Below are positions 12,902 through 21,167 of a stretch of 60,964 bases of DNA, piece by piece; within the stretch, counting starts at the first letter, position 1; each line of letters starts with the position of its first letter. The notes below the pieces were generated by a model. It saw only the letters and a program-made list of their open reading frames with translations. It was not told where the DNA came from and did no database searches. This stretch comes from Candidatus Nanopelagicales bacterium (GTDB taxonomy: Bacteria; Actinomycetota; Actinomycetes; S36-B12; UBA5976), in NCBI GenBank assembly GCA_016463095.1, contig JAEMSA010000006.1:1-60964 (forward strand), in the 5' to 3' direction. Both the position numbers and the translations under genes were made by a program.

Positions 12902-13563
12902 TTAGAAAGAAAACTCGTCGAAGAATTCTTTTTGTCCTAATTTTAATATCAGCACTGGCTTCAACATTTTTTTATATTGGTTGGTACTCAAATTTATTAA
13001 TTGTGAAAACTATTGAAGTCAGGGGAGCCAAAGAAGTACCAGTTCAAGTAATCACTAAAACAGCCAATGTGAATTTGAATACCCAATTGTTTCGTGTGCC
13101 GATAGCCAGTGTGGCTGAAAGACTCAGCACGATCTCTCAAATAGGCAGAGCCGATGTGAGAAGAGGATGGCCTTCTACGTTGGTTATTGAAATTAGTGAA
13201 AGATCCCCAGTTGCGCTAACCGATATGGCGGCAGGCAGATTCTTAGTTGATCAATCCGGTTTCCCATATCTACCAGCACCAGTTGCTGCCAATTTTCCGT
13301 TAATAAGTGGACCAGATGATAAATCTCGGGCCGCCAGCATTTTAGTTTGGCAAAGTTTTCCTGACTGGTTAAAAGCCGAAATCACAATCACTAATGCAGA
13401 AAACCCAAACTCGATTTGGTTAATGATGACTAGTGGCAGAAAAGTTTTATGGGGCAGTGTTGATAAATCTCAAGATAAGAGTGCTGTGTTAAAAGTTTTA
13501 AGAAGAATGGCAGGTTCAACATACGATGTTTCCATACCTGAATTTCCGGTAGTCAAACCTTAA
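12898..13563 (+). CDS. ftsQ: Cell division protein FtsQ/DivIB
   Basis: Basic N-terminus, TM, POTRA region (VRRGWPSTLVIEISER), C-terminal YDVS motif; follows murC. Confidence 0.9.
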   Translation: MIRKKTRRRILFVLILISALASTFFYIGWYSNLLIVKTIEVRGAKEVPVQVITKTANVNLNTQLFRVPIASVAERLSTISQIGRADVRRGWPSTLVIEISERSPVALTDMAAGRFLVDQSGFPYLPAPVAANFPLISGPDDKSRAASILVWQSFPDWLKAEITITNAENPNSIWLMMTSGRKVLWGSVDKSQDKSAVLKVLRRMAGSTYDVSIPEFPVVKP

Positions 13564-15420
13564 TCAAAAAGGAATATCTTCATCGTTTTCGCTAACTTCA
13601 GCTAACGATGCAGAAAGACCTAAAGCTTTAGCAACCCGATCATCGTTACTTAGTAACGGGATCGAAGAATTCTCAATAATTTCACCAGTTTTAAGATCAA
13701 CTTGTAGTCCACCGATATCTGCTTTTACTTGTTCGGCATTGGCAAATTCGCACCACTGGCTTACTTTGCACCAATTACAAGGTGGATTAGCAGAAGGTGC
13801 AAAAAGTGTGTCACTAGCCCAGGTATCTACTTGCTCAGCTAATTGTGACCATGCTGCAAGTTTAACTTTTTCATCATCACAATCCCAGGTGATGATTTTA
13901 CATTCATCACTGGATATGAGTTCTAATTCAACTCGTTTATTTGTAAAATTACCAAGTTTTGTCAAAACATCTTTGGGTAAAGCATTTTCAACCATCAATC
14001 TTATTGCTAATGGCAATTGTGGATAAATGTTGAAATAGATATCATTTTCTAAATCTTTGATACTGGAAACTGTTTTCATTTCTCGCCACACCAAATCTTC
14101 ACCATTTTTATAAATAAGATCAGGTCTTGTGCTGACTGAAATATCTGCATCAGTATCAAGGGCCTCCACCGCTATTTCAGTGGCAACTTGAGAATCACTA
14201 TTTATAGGACAAGTTAATTGATGCTGAGCAAGAAACGGTAACGCAACATTTGCTTCATCTTGATTCCAACTGAGCTCTGTAGCTATTACTCCTAGTGTTG
14301 TTGGCGTTGGCAGCTCAGTTTTTTCGCAAGCTTTTGATCTTTTGTGTGCTTGCTCTAACCAAGCATGAACCAGCAAACCTCTTTGTTGAGCTGAGTTTTG
14401 AGTTTCCGGTTTGGTTCTTAAGCCAAGTTCATCTTGCAAAAAATACTGTCGCGGACATCTTCGATAAGTATGAAACTTTGAAGGTGAATAAGCCTTAGGC
14501 CAAGGAGCAAAAGCAGTAATACCTAGTAACCCTGGTCGATTAGGTAAAGTTTCACACATCGTGTTAGCTCTGCAGCTTCTACAATTTGGTCCAGACTTTT
14601 GTGTGCCTCCTTTAACGCGTTCAATAATTGTGGGCAAAGATTTTGTAAACATTTGACGAGCATCTTCCACACTTGTTGTTAAAACAATTGCTTGACTGGC
14701 ATCAAGGCAACCAATTTCCCTGATTCGGACATTTTGAGCTGGTGCTAAAACTTTATAAATTGGATCTCGTGGAGAACTCCAACTTGGTTCACTGTGTGGA
14801 ACCCCGTCGGCCAGAATTCGGGCTATCACTCCTGCTCTAACAGGGTTAAGCGTTGTCAAACCAGCTCTAGAAAATTTAAGAGCCCTAAATTCTCTAACTT
14901 TTCCATCATGGGAAGTTAAATAGATTCCCCAGGCAAACCATTCTGTATGTGAATCTTCGGTGTCATCAAATGCTTGAATTACTTCCAAGTCAGTGAAATC
15001 AATATTGTGTGCCATATCTTCAACGCGAGCTTTTTCCCAAGCAGTCAAATACCCAACTAATGCATCAATAGCCCATAACTTATGAGATTTTTCAACTTGG
15101 CCACGGGATTTACTAATCGCTTCAGTAATTGCACTTTCAGCGATCTCATCTTTGTCTTCAAATTCGTGAATCACTTTTTCGTTACTAATACTGGACAAAA
15201 GTGCATCTCTAACAATTCCTAATGGAAAAGATTCAAACGGGGGATAGCGAAGTTGTAAGTATCCTTCCCCAATTTTTGCGGCAGGTCTTGATTTAAGTGA
15301 AATAAAATCATGGCAAGCTCTGTTGTTTTCTGCACCGACTTGCGAAGCAGAAATTCTTAAGAAACCTGCTGTGGTTACCGGAAAACCAGGAAACCAGTCT
15401 TGCGGAATTTGAGTGGTCAT
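13564..15420 (-). CDS. Tandem-domain PD-(D/E)XK (RecB/Cas4-like) Fe-S nuclease family protein with acidic DIPF tail
   Basis: C-terminal domain: SPSKF..C322PRQY, RGLLVHAWLE, RP-D434, E447-M-K449, YPQL, C548xxC551x5C557. N-terminal domain repeats the S-x-S..C36 and C280xxC283x5C289 pattern. Confidence 0.85.
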   Translation of the reverse strand: MTTQIPQDWFPGFPVTTAGFLRISASQVGAENNRACHDFISLKSRPAAKIGEGYLQLRYPPFESFPLGIVRDALLSSISNEKVIHEFEDKDEIAESAITEAISKSRGQVEKSHKLWAIDALVGYLTAWEKARVEDMAHNIDFTDLEVIQAFDDTEDSHTEWFAWGIYLTSHDGKVREFRALKFSRAGLTTLNPVRAGVIARILADGVPHSEPSWSSPRDPIYKVLAPAQNVRIREIGCLDASQAIVLTTSVEDARQMFTKSLPTIIERVKGGTQKSGPNCRSCRANTMCETLPNRPGLLGITAFAPWPKAYSPSKFHTYRRCPRQYFLQDELGLRTKPETQNSAQQRGLLVHAWLEQAHKRSKACEKTELPTPTTLGVIATELSWNQDEANVALPFLAQHQLTCPINSDSQVATEIAVEALDTDADISVSTRPDLIYKNGEDLVWREMKTVSSIKDLENDIYFNIYPQLPLAIRLMVENALPKDVLTKLGNFTNKRVELELISSDECKIITWDCDDEKVKLAAWSQLAEQVDTWASDTLFAPSANPPCNWCKVSQWCEFANAEQVKADIGGLQVDLKTGEIIENSSIPLLSNDDRVAKALGLSASLAEVSENDEDIPF

Positions 15421-16343
15421 AATTCTGGTTCTCCGAAGGGCAACATTTCCATTCCAGCATTTGGATTACTTGCTTTACTGCGGACTCTTTTTTCGACGTT
15501 TAAAGTTGCTAACAAACTTTCAGATTCAGAGGTCCCAGGAATAGGGGCTTTGGAGGTTTTTGCTGGACAAGCTTTTATGAAGGCACAAGATTTGCAAGGG
15601 TTACCAGGATTTGCCATCCAAGTTTGTTTTTCTAAAGAAGAATCCATTTTTCTTCTGGTGGTAACTAAATGTTGAACAGCTCGATCAAGTGCAGATTTAT
15701 AGGTAGGTCTTCTAACTCGATCTCTGCCAGGTAAATAAATGAGTTCTACTTCTCCAACATCTAAACCGTTTTCTTTCAAACCAGCTGCATAAAGCATCAC
15801 TTGGCGTAGCGAATCAGTTAAATACTGTGGAGCTGGTCTTTTGGATGTTTTGTAGTCAGTAATGCGCACCACACCATCTCGAGTCATTCGATCTAGTCGC
15901 CCATAAAGTTTCACAGATTCAAAAATGGCGGTCACTGGTCGTTCTAGATCTTCCAGATCAATATTTAGTTGGGTAGGGTCTTCCAAGTCAAAATATCCCT
16001 TGAGTGACTCAGCACTTTTATCCTTAAGTGTTACTAAATCTTCCTCTTTTAACCAAGACTTGTTGTGATCAATAACAACTTCACCTGTATCGCGTAATAA
16101 ATTCCAGGCCACTTCTTTGGTTCTATTTTCTGCTTTAATCTTTAAAAAATTCTCTAAAACATCATGAACAAGTGTGCCAATTATTTGAGGCAAACCTGCA
16201 GGTTCACGCCATCCTGCAACAGATGAGAACCAGTAGGCCAAAGAGCATCTATCAAAACTTGATAGTTGACTGGGCGAGACATGCTTTGGTAGTTGATTAC
16301 CAATATCAGCTACTTGTACGGCAACCAGTTTTTCTTCTGACAT
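15417..16343 (-). CDS. RecB-family/Cas4-like PD-(D/E)XK exonuclease with Fe-S cysteines
   Basis: SPSQL..C33, GTLVHDVLE, GRL-D151-R, D163-Y-K165, QVMLYA, C250xxC253x5C259; ATGA overlap with the downstream nuclease gene. Confidence 0.9.
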   Translation of the reverse strand: MSEEKLVAVQVADIGNQLPKHVSPSQLSSFDRCSLAYWFSSVAGWREPAGLPQIIGTLVHDVLENFLKIKAENRTKEVAWNLLRDTGEVVIDHNKSWLKEEDLVTLKDKSAESLKGYFDLEDPTQLNIDLEDLERPVTAIFESVKLYGRLDRMTRDGVVRITDYKTSKRPAPQYLTDSLRQVMLYAAGLKENGLDVGEVELIYLPGRDRVRRPTYKSALDRAVQHLVTTRRKMDSSLEKQTWMANPGNPCKSCAFIKACPAKTSKAPIPGTSESESLLATLNVEKRVRSKASNPNAGMEMLPFGEPEL

Positions 16344-16373
16344 TGCTCTATTTTTCGAATGTGTAGAAAACTT

Positions 16374-16952
16374 TCATCTACATCGACTTAACAGCGGAAA
16401 CAACCTTGGACAATGAATCTTTAGCATCACCAAATAATAATGTTGTTTTGTCGTTGAAAAGTAATTCGTTTTCCACACCACACCATCTCGAGTCATTCGA
16501 TCTAGTCGCCCATAAAGTTTCACAGATTCAAAAATGGCGGTCACTGGTCGTTCTAGATCTTCCAGATCAATATTTAGTTGGGTAGGGTCTTCCAAGTCAA
16601 AATATCCCTTGAGTGACTCAGCACTTTTATCCTTAAGTGTTACTAAATCTTCCTCTTTTAACCAAGACTTGTTGTGATCAATAACAACTTCACCTGTATC
16701 GCGTAATAAATTCCAGGCCACTTCTTTGGTTCTATTTTCTGCTTTAATCTTTAAAAAATTCTCTAAAACATCATGAACAAGTGTGCCAATTATTTGAGGC
16801 AAACCTGCAGGTTCACGCCATCCTGCAACAGATGAGAACCAGTAGGCCAAAGAGCATCTATCAAAACTTGATAGTTGACTGGGCGAGACATGCTTTGGTA
16901 GTTGATTACCAATATCAGCTACTTGTACGGCAACCAGTTTTTCTTCTGACAT
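16374..16952 (-). pseudogene. Truncated/chimeric copy of the RecB-family nuclease (aa 1-159 identical plus 33 aa out-of-frame pntB-derived tail)
   Basis: Identical to the 15417-16343 product up to RDGVV; lacks DYK and the CxxC-x5-C cysteines. Confidence 0.85.
16378..16479 (-). pseudogene. Duplicated 3' fragment of pntB
   Basis: Same sequence as 16987-17088 (end of pntB), carried by the 609-bp duplication. Confidence 0.85.
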
Positions 16953-16986
16953 TGCTCTATTTTTCGAATGTGTAGAAAACTTTCAT

Positions 16987-18363
16987 CTACATCGACTTAA
17001 CAGCGGAAACAACCTTGGACAATGAATCTTTAGCATCACCAAATAATAATGTTGTTTTGTCGTTGAAAAGTAATTCGTTTTCCACACCTGCAAAACCTGG
17101 GCGCATGGAACGCTTCATAAATACAACTTGTTCAGCTTGATCGGCATTAAGAATTGGCATCCCGAAAATTGGGGAAGTCTTGTCTGTTCTGGCAGCAGGA
17201 TTTACTACGTCATTTGCTCCCACCACCACAGCTACAGTGGCACTGGCAAATTCGGAATTAATTTCATCCATTTCTTTTAATTGCTCATAAGGAACATCAG
17301 CTTCGGCAAGTAAAACGTTCATATGCCCAGGCATGCGCCCTGCCACTGGATGAATTGCGTATTCAACTTCTACACCTTTAGAGATTAATAAATCAACTAA
17401 TTCTCTTAAAGATTGTTGCGCTTGAGCAACCGCTAAACCATAACCTGGAACAATAATCACTTTCGATGCATAAGCAAGCATGATGGCAATGTCGGTTGGT
17501 CCAGCACTTTTAACTGGTCGATCAACTGCAGAAGTTGCTGCAGTAGTTGCTCTGGCAGTGAAGGCACCAAACAAAGTTGCAGTTAAAGGTCTTCCCATAG
17601 CTTTAGCCATAAGTTGGGTTAATAACGTTCCGGACGCTCCAACTAAAGTACCGGCAACTAATAACAAAACGTTATCTAATACGTAACCACTTGCTGCTAC
17701 AGATAATCCAGTAAATGCATTTAACAAACTGATCACAATTGGAACATCTGCGCCACCCACGGGAAGTACAAACAAAATTCCCATAACTAAAGACAAACCA
17801 ACCAGAGTCCACAAGGCCCAATTTTCTGGGCTAATTAATAAGTAAACAGACATTACTAAAGTTGCGATTGCTGTACCTATTGTTATGAAACGACCAAAAG
17901 GTAATACAACTGGTCTGGAAGTCATTAATTCTTGCAATTTTAAAAATGTAACTATAGATCCGGTAAAAGAGATTGAACCGATGACGACTGTGAAAACTGT
18001 GGCAAACAAAGCAACAAATCCATCTGTTGTTCCAGATTTTAAGAATTCAATTGAGGAAACAGCCATAGCTGCTCCGCCGCCCACACCGTTAAACAATGCC
18101 ACCATTTGGGGCATCTGTGTCATTTGAACTCTTTTAGCTGCTACATAACCAACAATTGTTCCGATTGCCACGGCTATTAAAATTAATGTTAAATGTTTTA
18201 AATTACTTTCAGAAAAGAAAACAATAGCTACAGCTGCAATCGCCCCAACAGCACCAATTCTATTTCCAAGACGTGCAGTTTTTGGTGAGGACAAAGCTTT
18301 TAGTGCCAAAATGAAAGCAAGTGCTGCACCTAGATTTGCTAACTGTGACCAGGCTGGTGTCAT
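16987..18363 (-). CDS. pntB: NAD(P)+ transhydrogenase beta subunit
   Basis: GGADVPIVISLLN, VPGYGLAVAQAQ, AIHPVAGRMPGHMNVLLAEA, GANDVVNPAA. Confidence 0.98.
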   Translation of the reverse strand: MTPAWSQLANLGAALAFILALKALSSPKTARLGNRIGAVGAIAAVAIVFFSESNLKHLTLILIAVAIGTIVGYVAAKRVQMTQMPQMVALFNGVGGGAAMAVSSIEFLKSGTTDGFVALFATVFTVVIGSISFTGSIVTFLKLQELMTSRPVVLPFGRFITIGTAIATLVMSVYLLISPENWALWTLVGLSLVMGILFVLPVGGADVPIVISLLNAFTGLSVAASGYVLDNVLLLVAGTLVGASGTLLTQLMAKAMGRPLTATLFGAFTARATTAATSAVDRPVKSAGPTDIAIMLAYASKVIIVPGYGLAVAQAQQSLRELVDLLISKGVEVEYAIHPVAGRMPGHMNVLLAEADVPYEQLKEMDEINSEFASATVAVVVGANDVVNPAARTDKTSPIFGMPILNADQAEQVVFMKRSMRPGFAGVENELLFNDKTTLLFGDAKDSLSKVVSAVKSM

Positions 18364-18665
18364 TTCTTCTCACCAACTTTGTTTGATTTCTTTGATTTAA
18401 ATAACTCAAGCATGCGATCAGTTACTACAAAACCACCGACCATATTAATAGTTGCCAAAACAATTGCAAATAAACCAAGAACTAATTCCAAATTATTATC
18501 GGCATGACCTGTGACGATGATTGCCCCAACAAGAATTACACCGTGAATTGCGTTAGCTCCAGACATCAAAGGAGTGTGCAAGATTGTGGAAACTTTGGAA
18601 ACAACTTCAAAACCAACAAAAATGCTTAAGATAAATATTGTTAAAAATGCAATTTCGATACTCAT
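18360..18665 (-). CDS. pntAB: NAD(P)+ transhydrogenase alpha-2 (membrane) subunit
   Basis: LHTPLMSGANAIHG, GGFVVTDRML. Confidence 0.96.
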   Translation of the reverse strand: MSIEIAFLTIFILSIFVGFEVVSKVSTILHTPLMSGANAIHGVILVGAIIVTGHADNNLELVLGLFAIVLATINMVGGFVVTDRMLELFKSKKSNKVGEKK

Positions 18666-18669
18666 CTAA

Positions 18670-19800
18670 TTATCCCTGTCCTAATTCAGTTTTAACAAAA
18701 TCATTAGTGATCTCACCATTGATTACTAAAGCGCTACCAGATACAACTTCATCGTCTTTGTCAATAACAAGTGATCCGTCTTTGACAATGAAGGAAAGTA
18801 ATGAGATGACATTTCCTGCAAAAAGAAATGATGCATCAGGTGCCATGGAAGAAGCGATATTTTGTCCGCCCCAGATTTTTACTCCGTTGACTTCAACAAT
18901 TTGTCCAGGAACAGATCCTTCAACGTTGCCACCATTTTCGGCTGCCATGTCTGCGATTACAGATCCATATTTCATACCTTTAAGCATTGCTGCGGTAACT
19001 AGTCTTGGTGCTGGTCTTCCGGGAACTGCTGCAGTTGTTACTAGAACATCTGCTGCTGTGATGTAAGGAGTTAAAAGTTCTTGTTGAAGTTTGGTACGTT
19101 CTTGATCCATTTCTTTGGCATAACCGCCACTTCCTTCCACAACTGGTAATGCTAATTCGATGAATGTGGCGCCAACAGATTTAACTTCATCTTTACTTGC
19201 AGCTCTAACGTCATAACCTGAAACTATTGCACCAAGTTTTTTAGCGGTTGCCATTACTTGTAATCCGGCAACACCTGCACCAATAACTAAAACTTTCGAA
19301 GGTCGAATTGTTCCTGAAGCTGTCATAACCAAGGGAAACATTTTTGGCAACAATGAAGCAGCTGTAACCATGGTGTGATAACCAGCAACGGTGGCCTGAG
19401 AAGTTAAAGCATCAGCACTTTGTGCTCGAGAAATTCTTGGAACAAAGTCAAATGATAATAAAGTTGCGTGAGCTTTAGCAATGGCTGCAATGTTCTCTTT
19501 GTCCCTTTTTGCTTGGGCGAAAGATAAACAAACTGCACCTGATTTAAGTGATGAAGCAAGTGTCACAGGAAGTATTCCAACTGATGCAACTACATCTGCG
19601 TTTTTGATTGCAGCGGATATGTCAGTGACGATCTTTGCGCCAGCTTCTTGATAATTCTCGTTAGTAAATAGAGCTGTTAAACCAGCGTTGCTTTCAACTG
19701 ATACTTCAAATCCAAGTTTTACTAATTTGGCAATAGTCACAGGCGCAGCTGCAACCCTTTTTTCACCCGCACTGGTTTCCTTAGGCACGACTAATTGCAT
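18670..19800 (-). CDS. pntAA: NAD(P)+ transhydrogenase alpha-1 subunit (domain I)
   Basis: VPKE..GEKRVA, PRISRAQS, GAGVAGL, DMAAENGGN; start set to ATG 19800 with RBS AAGGGGA. Confidence 0.95.
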   Translation of the reverse strand: MQLVVPKETSAGEKRVAAAPVTIAKLVKLGFEVSVESNAGLTALFTNENYQEAGAKIVTDISAAIKNADVVASVGILPVTLASSLKSGAVCLSFAQAKRDKENIAAIAKAHATLLSFDFVPRISRAQSADALTSQATVAGYHTMVTAASLLPKMFPLVMTASGTIRPSKVLVIGAGVAGLQVMATAKKLGAIVSGYDVRAASKDEVKSVGATFIELALPVVEGSGGYAKEMDQERTKLQQELLTPYITAADVLVTTAAVPGRPAPRLVTAAMLKGMKYGSVIADMAAENGGNVEGSVPGQIVEVNGVKIWGGQNIASSMAPDASFLFAGNVISLLSFIVKDGSLVIDKDDEVVSGSALVINGEITNDFVKTELGQG

Positions 19801-19891
19801 GAAATTTATTTCCCCTTGAATGTCGTTCCTAGTTTGATATTCCAACTCTATTGACTGCTGAGAAAGAATTTGTGAGGTGCTTATATATGAG

Positions 19892-19907
19892 CAACACGCC
19901 GAGTCGC
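19892..19907 (+). promoter_or_regulatory. WhiA-box-like element upstream of ftsZ (CAACACGCCGAGTCGC)
   Basis: GACAC-like half sites on both strands (AACAC forward, GACTC reverse); WhiA is known to bind GACAC at actinobacterial ftsZ promoters. Confidence 0.45.
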
Positions 19908-19960
19908 GTGCTTGGCTAAGTCCCATATGAAGTCTAAATTCTCATTGCTTAACACACGCA

Positions 19961-19995
19961 ACAACTTTTAGCCTCAAGTTGAGGTTAAGAGTTGT
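19961..19995. promoter_or_regulatory. Inverted-repeat operator upstream of ftsZ, FtsR (MerR-family)-like
   Basis: ACAACTTTTAGCCTCAA-G-TTGAGGTTAAGAGTTGT, 15/17 inverted repeat with 1-nt spacer, 17 nt before the ftsZ start; resembles the conserved actinobacterial ftsZ palindrome. Confidence 0.7.
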
Positions 19996-20012
19996 ACCAG
20001 GGGGTTATTTAA

Positions 20013-21167
20013 GTGGTTGCACCACAAAATTACTTGGCCATTATCAAAGTTGTTGGTATTGGTGGCGGTGGCGTTAATGCTGTTAATCGAATGATTGAAG
20101 CCGGCGTAAAAGGCGTTGAATTTGTGGCAATAAATACCGACGCGCAAGCTCTCTTGATGAGTGATGCTGACGTCAAATTAGATATTGGTCGTGAACTAAC
20201 TCGTGGGCTAGGAGCTGGAGCTGATCCCTCAGTTGGTCGACAAGCTGCAGAAGATCACATTGAAGAATTAAGAGATGTTTTAAAAGGCTCTGACATGGTT
20301 TTCATTACGGCTGGTGAAGGTGGCGGAACTGGAACAGGTGGCGCACCTGTGGTGGCAAAAGTTGCTAAAGAAATGGGCGCTTTAACTATTGGTATTGTCA
20401 CAAAACCTTTCAATTTCGAAGGCAAGCGACGTATCAACCAAGCTGAATCGGGTGTTGACGCTTTAAGAAATGAAGTTGATACTTTAATTGTTATTCCAAA
20501 TGATCGTTTGCTTTCAATTTCTGACAGAAACATTTCAGTAATTGATGCATTTAGACAAGCAGATCATGTTCTACTCCAAGGAGTAAGTGGAATTACCGAT
20601 TTGATTACCACACCAGGTTTAATAAATCTTGACTTTGCTGATGTGCGAAGTGTGATGGCCGGTGCCGGAACAGCTTTGATGGGAATTGGTTCTGCTCGTG
20701 GAGAAAATAGGGCTGCAATTGCTGCAAATAACGCGATCGCTTCTCCTTTATTGGAAGCAGATATTCAAGGAGCAAAGGGAGTATTGCTTTCTATTGCAGG
20801 TGGCTCAGATTTAGGTTTGTTTGAAATTAATGAAGCAGCCCGTTTGGTGCAAAGCGTTGCAGCTGTTGATGCCAACATAATTTTTGGTGCAGTAATCGAT
20901 GATACTTTAGGTGATGAAGTACGAGTAACAGTAATTGCAGCAGGATTTGTGGATAAAGATTTAGCATCAGCTCGAAGAAGTACTATGCATGCAGTTGCAG
21001 ATGGTGAACCAGAAATTCCCTCATTTGTGGCTAGAACAAGAGAACCAGCAGTTACCCAACCTGCAGTCGGTTCAACTTTTAAGGCAAGCACTGCATCTAC
21101 TCCTAGAAGAGTTGTTTTTGATGACACCTTGAATGATGATCTTGATGTCCCGGATTTCTTAAAGTAG
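20013..21167 (+). CDS. ftsZ: Cell division protein FtsZ
   Basis: GGGTGTG signature, INLDFADV, C-terminal DLDVPDFLK; actinobacterial N-terminus PQNYLA. Confidence 0.99.

Follow-up and report, generated by a model that had tools for sequence, protein, structure and literature searches.

The window analysed here, 60,964 nucleotides in length, is a contig (JAEMSA010000006.1) of a 1.22-Mb, 88.6%-complete genome of about 40% GC from a Candidatus Nanopelagicales bacterium, and the named relatives closest to it are freshwater actinobacterial metagenome-assembled genomes (MAGs). Its minus strand carries two adjoining genes, which we call SMALL and BIG. SMALL (15417-16343, minus strand) encodes a protein of 308 amino acids (aa) which is predicted from its sequence to be a Cas4/RecB-type Fe-S nuclease, and BIG (13564-15420, minus strand) encodes a protein of 618 aa with two nuclease folds followed by a tail. 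The stop codon of SMALL and the start codon of BIG share the tetranucleotide ATGA (15417-15420, minus strand), an arrangement of translational coupling, and the same or a similar overlap of the two reading frames was seen in relatives. A first-pass annotation, made from the letters of the window, had proposed that the two genes are coupled in this manner and that their base composition is host-like. Both statements were borne out: the open reading frames (ORFs) and the overlap were recovered, and the GC fraction of the pair (0.39-0.41) matches that of the remainder of the window. We report that SMALL-BIG is a real, conserved and uncharacterised module and distant kin of a catalogued, unstudied defence-island protein.

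The first-pass annotation had assigned three PD-(D/E)XK-type domains to the two proteins, each with a 1+3 cysteine iron staple. Pfam PDDEXK_1 matched SMALL over residues 21-260 (E 9.3e-27) and BIG over residues 311-558 (E 1e-24), with no match over BIG 1-300. Pfam detected no domain other than PDDEXK_1 in SMALL or BIG, a superfamily 1 (UvrD-like) motor domain included, and a sequence search of the PDB with either protein returned nothing at E <= 1. In the AlphaFold model of BIG (predicted local distance difference test, pLDDT, 86.2; predicted template modelling score, pTM, 0.82) two globular halves are followed by a tail that is disordered. The C-terminal domain (aa ~300-561; 13738-14523, minus strand) is an active-looking RecB-type nuclease with H352, D434, E447-x-K449 and Q468, and its structure aligned with the AdnA nuclease domain at Z 12.1 (root-mean-square deviation, rmsd, 4.4; 229 aligned) and with ACE1 at Z 10.9, further matches being AddA, Dna2 and Cas4. 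When residues 1-300, which hold the N-terminal domain (aa 1 to ~295; 14536-15420, minus strand), were folded alone, the model reached pLDDT 86.5 and its top match by Foldseek was ACE1 (E 6.3e-7), while VIA-align, which is independent of Foldseek, aligned it with the nuclease domains of AddB (Z 10.9, rmsd 4.7, 246 aligned) and AdnA (Z 10.9, rmsd 4.7, 228 aligned), the best 15 matches of that search all being PD-(D/E)XK nucleases. Profile comparison by hhalign placed the C-terminal domain of BIG and SMALL in one family (98.4%) and aligned the two domains of BIG with each other weakly but in register (48%, E 1.9e-4).

Three folds are therefore recovered by Pfam, Foldseek and VIA-align, and the cysteine sets are present in all of them, namely C33/C250/C253/C259 in SMALL, C36/C280/C283/C289 in the N-terminal domain of BIG and C322/C548/C551/C557 in its C-terminal domain. 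Those of SMALL are invariant in 20 aligned relatives; those of BIG are invariant in 30 relatives except for C36, which is at least 90% conserved among them and invariant in an alignment of 23 N-terminal domain sequences. What did not stand is the catalytic part of the domain assignment. The D...(D/E)xK triad is invariant in the C-terminal domain of BIG (D434, E447, K449) and in SMALL (D151, D163, K165), where it belongs to a predicted active site (H60, D151, D163-x-K165 and Q181...Y185) that is invariant in aligned relatives. The N-terminal domain of BIG is without it: the positions aligned to the catalytic residues are not conserved, and apart from the cysteines only R22, E160, W164, R176 and A186 are invariant. 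Since the catalytic residues are invariant only in SMALL and the C-terminal domain of BIG, and none reliably so in the N-terminal domain, the latter, an AddB/AdnA-like Fe-S nuclease fold by structure, looks like a degenerate, non-catalytic module, and only two of the three folds look catalytic.

The pairing of the two genes was followed in two sets of loci. The close set comprised 35 loci from genomes and metagenomes, 30 with DNA upstream of BIG and five starting inside it; the metagenomes were scanned with an alignment of 12 sequences, since a profile built from all 30 relatives proved too divergent. SMALL lay directly upstream of BIG in 30/30 close loci with upstream DNA, and the position of the pair between pnt and fts genes was kept down to 33% BIG identity. 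Searched with a BIG profile, 201 genomes of the order yielded 39 matches, of which 34 were strong and five marginal (near E 1e-4), and 20 of the distant strong matches formed the distant set. There again SMALL was directly upstream of BIG in all 20 loci, often overlapping it; these loci span GC contents of 44-71% and have no pnt or fts neighbours, and thus the two genes move as a unit. Both sets together gave adjacency in 50/50 loci with upstream DNA, and 33 of the 34 genomes in the order with a strong BIG match also matched SMALL; the one that did not is 78% complete and its contig is truncated. The two-protein module proposed at first pass is supported by these counts, and genomes with BIG nearly all have SMALL. 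The co-occurrence of the homologues held in this direction only, for a SMALL-like gene (~36% identity) occurs without BIG, among menaquinone genes, in 19/20 genomes of a sister genus (g200). The solo SMALL-like nuclease of that genus at L102:5953-6810 has 285 aa, retains the active-site residues and has menaquinone biosynthesis genes around it.

A two-protein complex had also been supposed at first pass, and a heterodimer was indeed predicted. With BIG 1-565 and SMALL 1-275 as input, three runs gave an interface score (ipSAE) of 0.82-0.83 against 0.00 for the best of three controls, the pLDDT of the partners being at least 87 and the contacts agreeing by 100% between runs. The ipSAE mark was reached by 116/157 solved complexes and 2/215 mismatched pairs, a calibration which holds only roughly here because our own alignments were used as input. 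We know of no solved complex of this kind. On the BIG side the predicted interface comprises the invariant PGLLG linker (296-304), residues 423-426 and the helix 517-533, and on the SMALL side residues 157-158, 172-183, 197-198 and 210-218; among these G297, L299, G300 and A523 of BIG and L179, R180 and P213 of SMALL are invariant or at least 90% conserved. SMALL is thereby predicted to dock on the C-terminal domain and PGLLG linker of BIG, and the prediction supports binding of the two as a heterodimer. That BIG and SMALL are independent nucleases and mere neighbours, SMALL being a solo Cas4-like enzyme and BIG working alone or with other partners, appears very improbable to us: the solo genes of the sister genus would suit it, as would the BIG relatives of pPIWI-RE islands and of plasmids described below, which have no adjoining SMALL, but it has to contend with the 50/50 adjacency in overlapping or abutting frames and in very different genomic contexts, with a complex prediction that beats all three controls and with the conservation of the predicted interface residues.

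Beyond what the first-pass annotation had described, BIG ends in a tip like that of SSB, the protein that binds single-stranded DNA. The tail (aa 562-618; 13567-13737, minus strand) is disordered, with pLDDT <50 for residues 598-618, and the last residues of the protein are ...SENDEDIPF, with the stop codon after the tip D-E-D-I-P-F (13567-13584, minus strand). At the 50 paired loci, all complete BIGs have acidic residues and then [ILVF]-[PA]-F at their C-terminus, preceded by a freely variable linker. Among the best 150 representatives of the family an acidic pair with a [PA]F ending was found in 41, several of them ending DDEPPF, and by length it was found in 24/32 representatives of at least 580 aa versus 17/118 shorter ones. 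The main SSB of the genome ends NDEAPF, the main SSBs of relatives end DEPPF in all four that have a readable tail (five checked), and among the genome's 1625 stop-to-stop ORFs of 100 aa or more only BIG and SSB carry this ending. According to PMC3159472, the SSB tip, with the consensus D-D-D-I-P-F, is where a dozen or more repair proteins dock, a hydrophobic pocket taking the terminal Phe and a basic ridge the acidic residues. In view of this docking role and of the likeness between the two tips, we propose that the tail of BIG may engage SSB-tip pockets, or else act in cis as an autoinhibitory DNA mimic. Within the otherwise variable part of the tail (aa 562-607; 13600-13737, minus strand) the stretches 'VDLKTGEII' and 'ALGL' are conserved in several lineages. 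SMALL, too, has lineage-specific acidic/hydrophobic motifs at its C-terminus, behind a conserved GL(E/Q)(K/R)R (window 15420-15500, minus strand; loci L070-L089), for example '...GMEMLPFGEE', 'EFLPLELSE' and 'GDLLDMLDDE'.

The claim of an undescribed system needs qualifying, as BIG is a distant member of the PADLOC family PprPDDEXK, the fourth gene of pPIWI-RE islands. The PADLOC profile matched BIG 106-561 over profile positions 18-445 of 449 with E 1.5e-60; PADLOC has no curated cut-off for this family, and the match is far weaker than that of true members (E 1.9e-221). In two 8-9 Mb genomes of one genus, taken to be Streptomyces, a BIG homologue (E 1.9e-221) lies just upstream of a three-gene pPIWI-RE island in 2/2 loci, the island genes encoding a REase-Y protein (PprRE), a DinG-type Z-domain helicase (PprDinG) and pPIWI-RE (PprPIWI), with an N6 methyltransferase and a Ser/Thr kinase nearby. 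It follows from this placement of the PprPDDEXK homologue that 'Ppr' denotes pPIWI-RE and that the candidate system in PADLOC has four genes. The founding paper on PIWI-RE described three genes, and its passages on RecB, Cas4 and cysteine do not mention the nuclease (PMC3702460); in our literature search no paper naming PprPDDEXK was found. A 323-aa ORF upstream of the Streptomyces-type BIG was considered as a SMALL and rejected, being not SMALL-like and belonging to no Pfam or PADLOC family.

The BIG family is small, with 216 representatives at E <=1e-30 among 1.84 billion, and largely actinobacterial. Lengths are mostly 500-670 aa, the longest of the best 150 representatives having 759 aa, and among proteins 1083-3090 aa long no fused form turned up, a weak negative. 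BIG was present in 12/12 sampled genomes of the genus of the window and in 5/5 of a second genus, all of them of 1.0-1.4 Mb. At 13 distant loci the neighbours are metabolic genes, and none has an integrase or transposase. Among the distant loci Ung lies directly upstream of SMALL in two loci of one genus, a RecQ-family helicase is adjacent in two loci of another genus and a photolyase is nearby in one. Enzymes of the Ung and RecQ kinds are known to bind the SSB tip in E. coli.

In the window SMALL-BIG follows pntAA-pntAB-pntB on one strand, and the whole stands between ftsQ and ftsZ in an otherwise ordinary division and cell wall (dcw) cluster, murE-murF-mraY-murD-ftsW-murG-murC-ftsQ on one side and ftsZ-pgeF-ylmE-sepF on the other, the names of the flanking genes being our reading of their Pfam domains. 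The three NAD(P) transhydrogenase genes (16987-19926, minus strand) and the nuclease pair thus interrupt the dcw cluster between ftsQ and ftsZ, as they do throughout the genus and beyond. The order pntAA-pntAB-pntB-SMALL-BIG between ftsZ and ftsQ was kept in relatives down to 33% identity and in all 25 close loci that reach pntB. SMALL begins ~35 nt downstream of pntB on the same strand, and a scan for consensus-match promoters and terminators over 13300-20100 found none on the minus strand between them. A role tied to the NAD(P) transhydrogenase or to cell division, for example in processing chromosome ends or septum-trapped DNA, would agree with this close and conserved arrangement; we consider it scarcely credible, as it is largely refuted by the 20/20 distant pairs without pnt or fts neighbours, and the linkage is thus a lineage-specific synteny and not a functional rule. 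Contigs of RNA libraries, from two runs of two studies, cover parts of both SMALL and BIG, which is a weak hint of transcription. In many relatives, including most loci of 79-88% identity, BIG and ftsQ are separated by a gene for an aldehyde dehydrogenase of 505 aa (e.g. L002:9897-11414, L003 and L004); this gene is missing from the window and from loci L001, L015, L026 and L037. Locus L001, a 96% identical contig, bears the title of a Bifidobacterium breve MAG, which looks like a mislabel or a contaminant.

Genes of the dcw cluster, pnt genes and ileS lie within ~10 kb on either side of the pair, and over this range no helicase, cas, array, methylase or integrase gene was found, in agreement with the first-pass annotation. 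Elsewhere in the genome, on contig C7, there is an AdnAB-like helicase-nuclease pair, and the UvrD-helicase profile matches all fall on contigs other than the window. The genome also encodes a third small iron-staple nuclease paralogue (C73:37945-38724), which is 27% identical to SMALL and matches PDDEXK_1 with E 3.6e-36.

The window contains a perfect 609-bp tandem duplication (15867-16475 and 16476-17084, within the region 15867-17088), which extends from the 3' end of pntB across the spacer into SMALL as far as codon 158, has the microhomology CCACACC at its junction and gives rise to a truncated ORF (16374-16952, minus strand). It is absent from relatives of 96-99% identity, a DNA contig of run X2 passes from 14657 to 16479 and then directly into the sequence that follows 17088, i.e. 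without the duplication, and in run X1 a 613-nt unit assembled as a separate contig at the depth of its flanks; on these grounds the duplication is most likely an assembly artefact, and 15417-16343 the intact SMALL. In two older metagenome contigs of 99% identity (L038:5081-6004 and L039:2887-3812) SMALL is broken into two or three pieces, probably by sequencing errors.

Combining these observations, we tentatively favour, at a little short of an even chance, the reading that SMALL-BIG is a motor-less heterodimeric nuclease for single-stranded DNA (ssDNA) or DNA ends, linked to the SSB interaction network and serving genome maintenance. SMALL and BIG, made from one coupled message, would assemble into a heterodimer with three [4Fe-4S] iron-staple modules of RecB/Cas4 type and no motor, in which SMALL and the C-terminal domain of BIG would hold full Mg-dependent D...(D/E)xK sites, while the N-terminal domain of BIG would most likely be a scaffold that guides DNA or binds its end, comparable to the inactive RecC and AddB modules. 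On the analogy of AdnA, AddB, ACE1 and Cas4, ssDNA threaded through a narrow channel would be cut at each active site, and the complex could trim the two strands of a frayed end, flap, gap or fork without unwinding of its own. The DEDIPF tip would dock the nuclease on proteins with an SSB-tip pocket, such as helicases and repair enzymes, or regulate it in cis, so that unwinding and targeting might be provided in trans. The module would then, in this clade, be a stably inherited maintenance factor for resection or for flap or gap processing, and not a strain-variable defence island. We count in favour of maintenance the fixed synteny, the presence in every sampled genome of the two genera, the host-like GC, the housekeeping or metabolic flanks and the SSB-like tail. 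The retention of the module in streamlined freshwater genomes of 1.2 Mb further suggests that its function is under steady selection.

Several observations weigh against a role in maintenance. Our literature search found no biochemical or genetic data for any member of the family. When LexA-box and PafBC/RecA-NDp-like motifs (up to 1-3 mismatches allowed) were looked for within 250 nt upstream of SMALL at 27 loci, the matches were single and scattered and none recurred, which gave no sign of a tie to a DNA-damage regulon. RecQ was considered as a general partner and rejected, for a search turned up no RecQ-family member in this genome or in any sampled genome of the two streamlined genera (0/12 and 0/5), and RecQ therefore cannot be one. 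As the genome already has the AdnAB-like enzyme, a second end-processing system is not obviously needed. The SSB of the genome has A or P where the BIGs have I/L/V/F, and hence the tips are alike and not identical. The remaining points on this side are those that also argue for defence: the nearest catalogued relative of BIG belongs to a candidate defence island; strong BIG matches are patchy over the order (34/201 genomes, 0/20 in the sister genus) and over a phylum sample (2/300 other genomes); genes for GmrSD_C (two loci) or PIN (one locus) flank the pair in 3/13 distant loci; and there are tail-bearing relatives on plasmids, in mobile surroundings. Four plasmid records carry BIG relatives, and in the two examined, from Streptomyces albidoflavus and Rhodococcus antarcticus, two genes come after the BIG-like one amid insertion sequence (IS) elements and transposases, a ~265-aa gene that fits no clear family and one for a divergent ImmA/IrrE peptidase, the Rhodococcus antarcticus plasmid having in addition an EcoRI-type methyltransferase and a DUF262 gene nearby. 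In these plasmid arrays, which come from two genera (L106:8986-12688 and L107:8539-12110), the ~265-aa protein has a weak PIN_4 match (E 9e-4) in one, and the combination of BIG, the ~265-aa gene and ImmA/IrrE may be a third type of system.

The main rival is accordingly a domesticated anti-phage or anti-plasmid defence module, a relative of PprPDDEXK and of the Argonaute-associated Cas4 enzymes that lost or never had a PIWI partner and would degrade invading linear or replicating DNA, with a tip that finds SSB-coated foreign DNA intermediates or senses or decoys phage SSB-binding proteins. We hold it to be unlikely, although with appreciable weight. Apart from the distribution and neighbours just given, it draws on the PprPDDEXK match, on the Streptomyces-type islands with their methyltransferase and kinase, and on the presence of ACE1 among the top structural matches, which according to PMC12094033 is an enzyme that boosts interference by prokaryotic Argonaute (pAgo) and of whose class many genes occur in genomes without pAgo. 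The first-pass annotation had likewise entertained anti-phage defence, a reading for which the context in this clade gives little support: the locus is fixed in position and present throughout the two genera, which is unusual for strain-variable islands, and it lies among dcw and pnt genes, or at the distant loci among metabolic ones, and not in a variable island. Furthermore, no adjacent methyltransferase or other device for telling self from non-self accompanies the pair, and no phage record carries a BIG relative. In the 88.6%-complete genome we did not find Piwi (PF02171; controls matched in two genomes), Cas1 or pPIWI-RE (PF13032), the last being a weak negative, since that search matched in no control genome. 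In a quick maximum-likelihood tree (IQ-TREE, midpoint root, SH-aLRT support only) 17 tail-less proteins, including both pPIWI-RE-linked ones, were split by a fully supported branch from 29 others, which comprise every SMALL-paired BIG and the plasmid forms; the Ppr-type proteins thus form a separate, tail-less clade.

A bolder version of the maintenance reading, which we think doubtful and decidedly less probable, is that of a plug-in resection nuclease. Here a motor-less heterodimer with its own copy of the SSB tip would dock on any helicase or repair enzyme with an SSB-tip pocket, or compete with SSB, so that a machine like AddAB or AdnAB is assembled in trans, a trick that would be common to the plasmid-borne relatives. 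If true, this would be the first conserved bacterial enzyme family shown to mimic the SSB tip. Should the tail work as proposed, it would offer a modular route to end-processing machines and extend the SSB interaction network of Actinomycetota by a nuclease. The present case has three iron-staple folds in two obligately paired proteins, with no motor and with a tail that resembles the recruitment signal of SSB, and through the common two-domain core SMALL-BIG is a point of entry to the fourth pPIWI-RE island gene, itself uncharacterised.

Iron-staple nucleases are otherwise known as fusions to helicases (AddAB, AdnAB, Dna2) or as helpers of Cas1-Cas2 and of Argonautes, and SMALL-BIG resembles each of these systems in part. 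With Cas4, SMALL shares the layout, the 1+3 cysteines and D...DxK (Pfam Cas_Cas4, E 1.4e-4), but it falls under both curated cut-offs (22.5 vs 22.7 for Pfam Cas_Cas4, and 45.5 bits vs 65 for NCBIfam cas4 TIGR00372); Tandem Repeats Finder found no tandem array in the window, and the solo-Cas4 of Methanosarcina (PMC12501428) serves as a comparison for SMALL. ACE1/ACE2 offers the likeness of a helicase-less iron-staple nuclease that forms a heterodimer with a partner, ACE1 being an endonuclease for ssDNA that has a threading channel and no helicase (PMC12094033), whereas the partner of BIG is another nuclease and not pAgo, and sequence identity is only 10-14%. PprPDDEXK has in common with BIG the two-domain architecture of a degenerate and an active iron-staple fold over ~550 aa and all eight cysteines; its true members, however, adjoin PprRE, PprDinG and PprPIWI, none of which is among the neighbours in the window, and have neither SMALL nor an SSB-like tail. 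From SSB itself the tip differs in its carrier, which is a nuclease and not an OB-fold ssDNA binder, although E-N-D-E-D-I-P-F stands, as in SSB, at the free end of a disordered tail in which the tip is conserved and the linker varies. The nuclease domains of AdnAB and AddAB are the best structural matches of both BIG domains (Z 10.9-12.1) and share the iron staple; SMALL-BIG differs from these enzymes in having no UvrD-type motor, fused or adjacent, in a genome with a separate AdnAB-like pair, and resembles them again in that each of their complexes has a pair of nuclease modules, one per strand, and that AddAB and RecBCD, too, carry inactivated modules.

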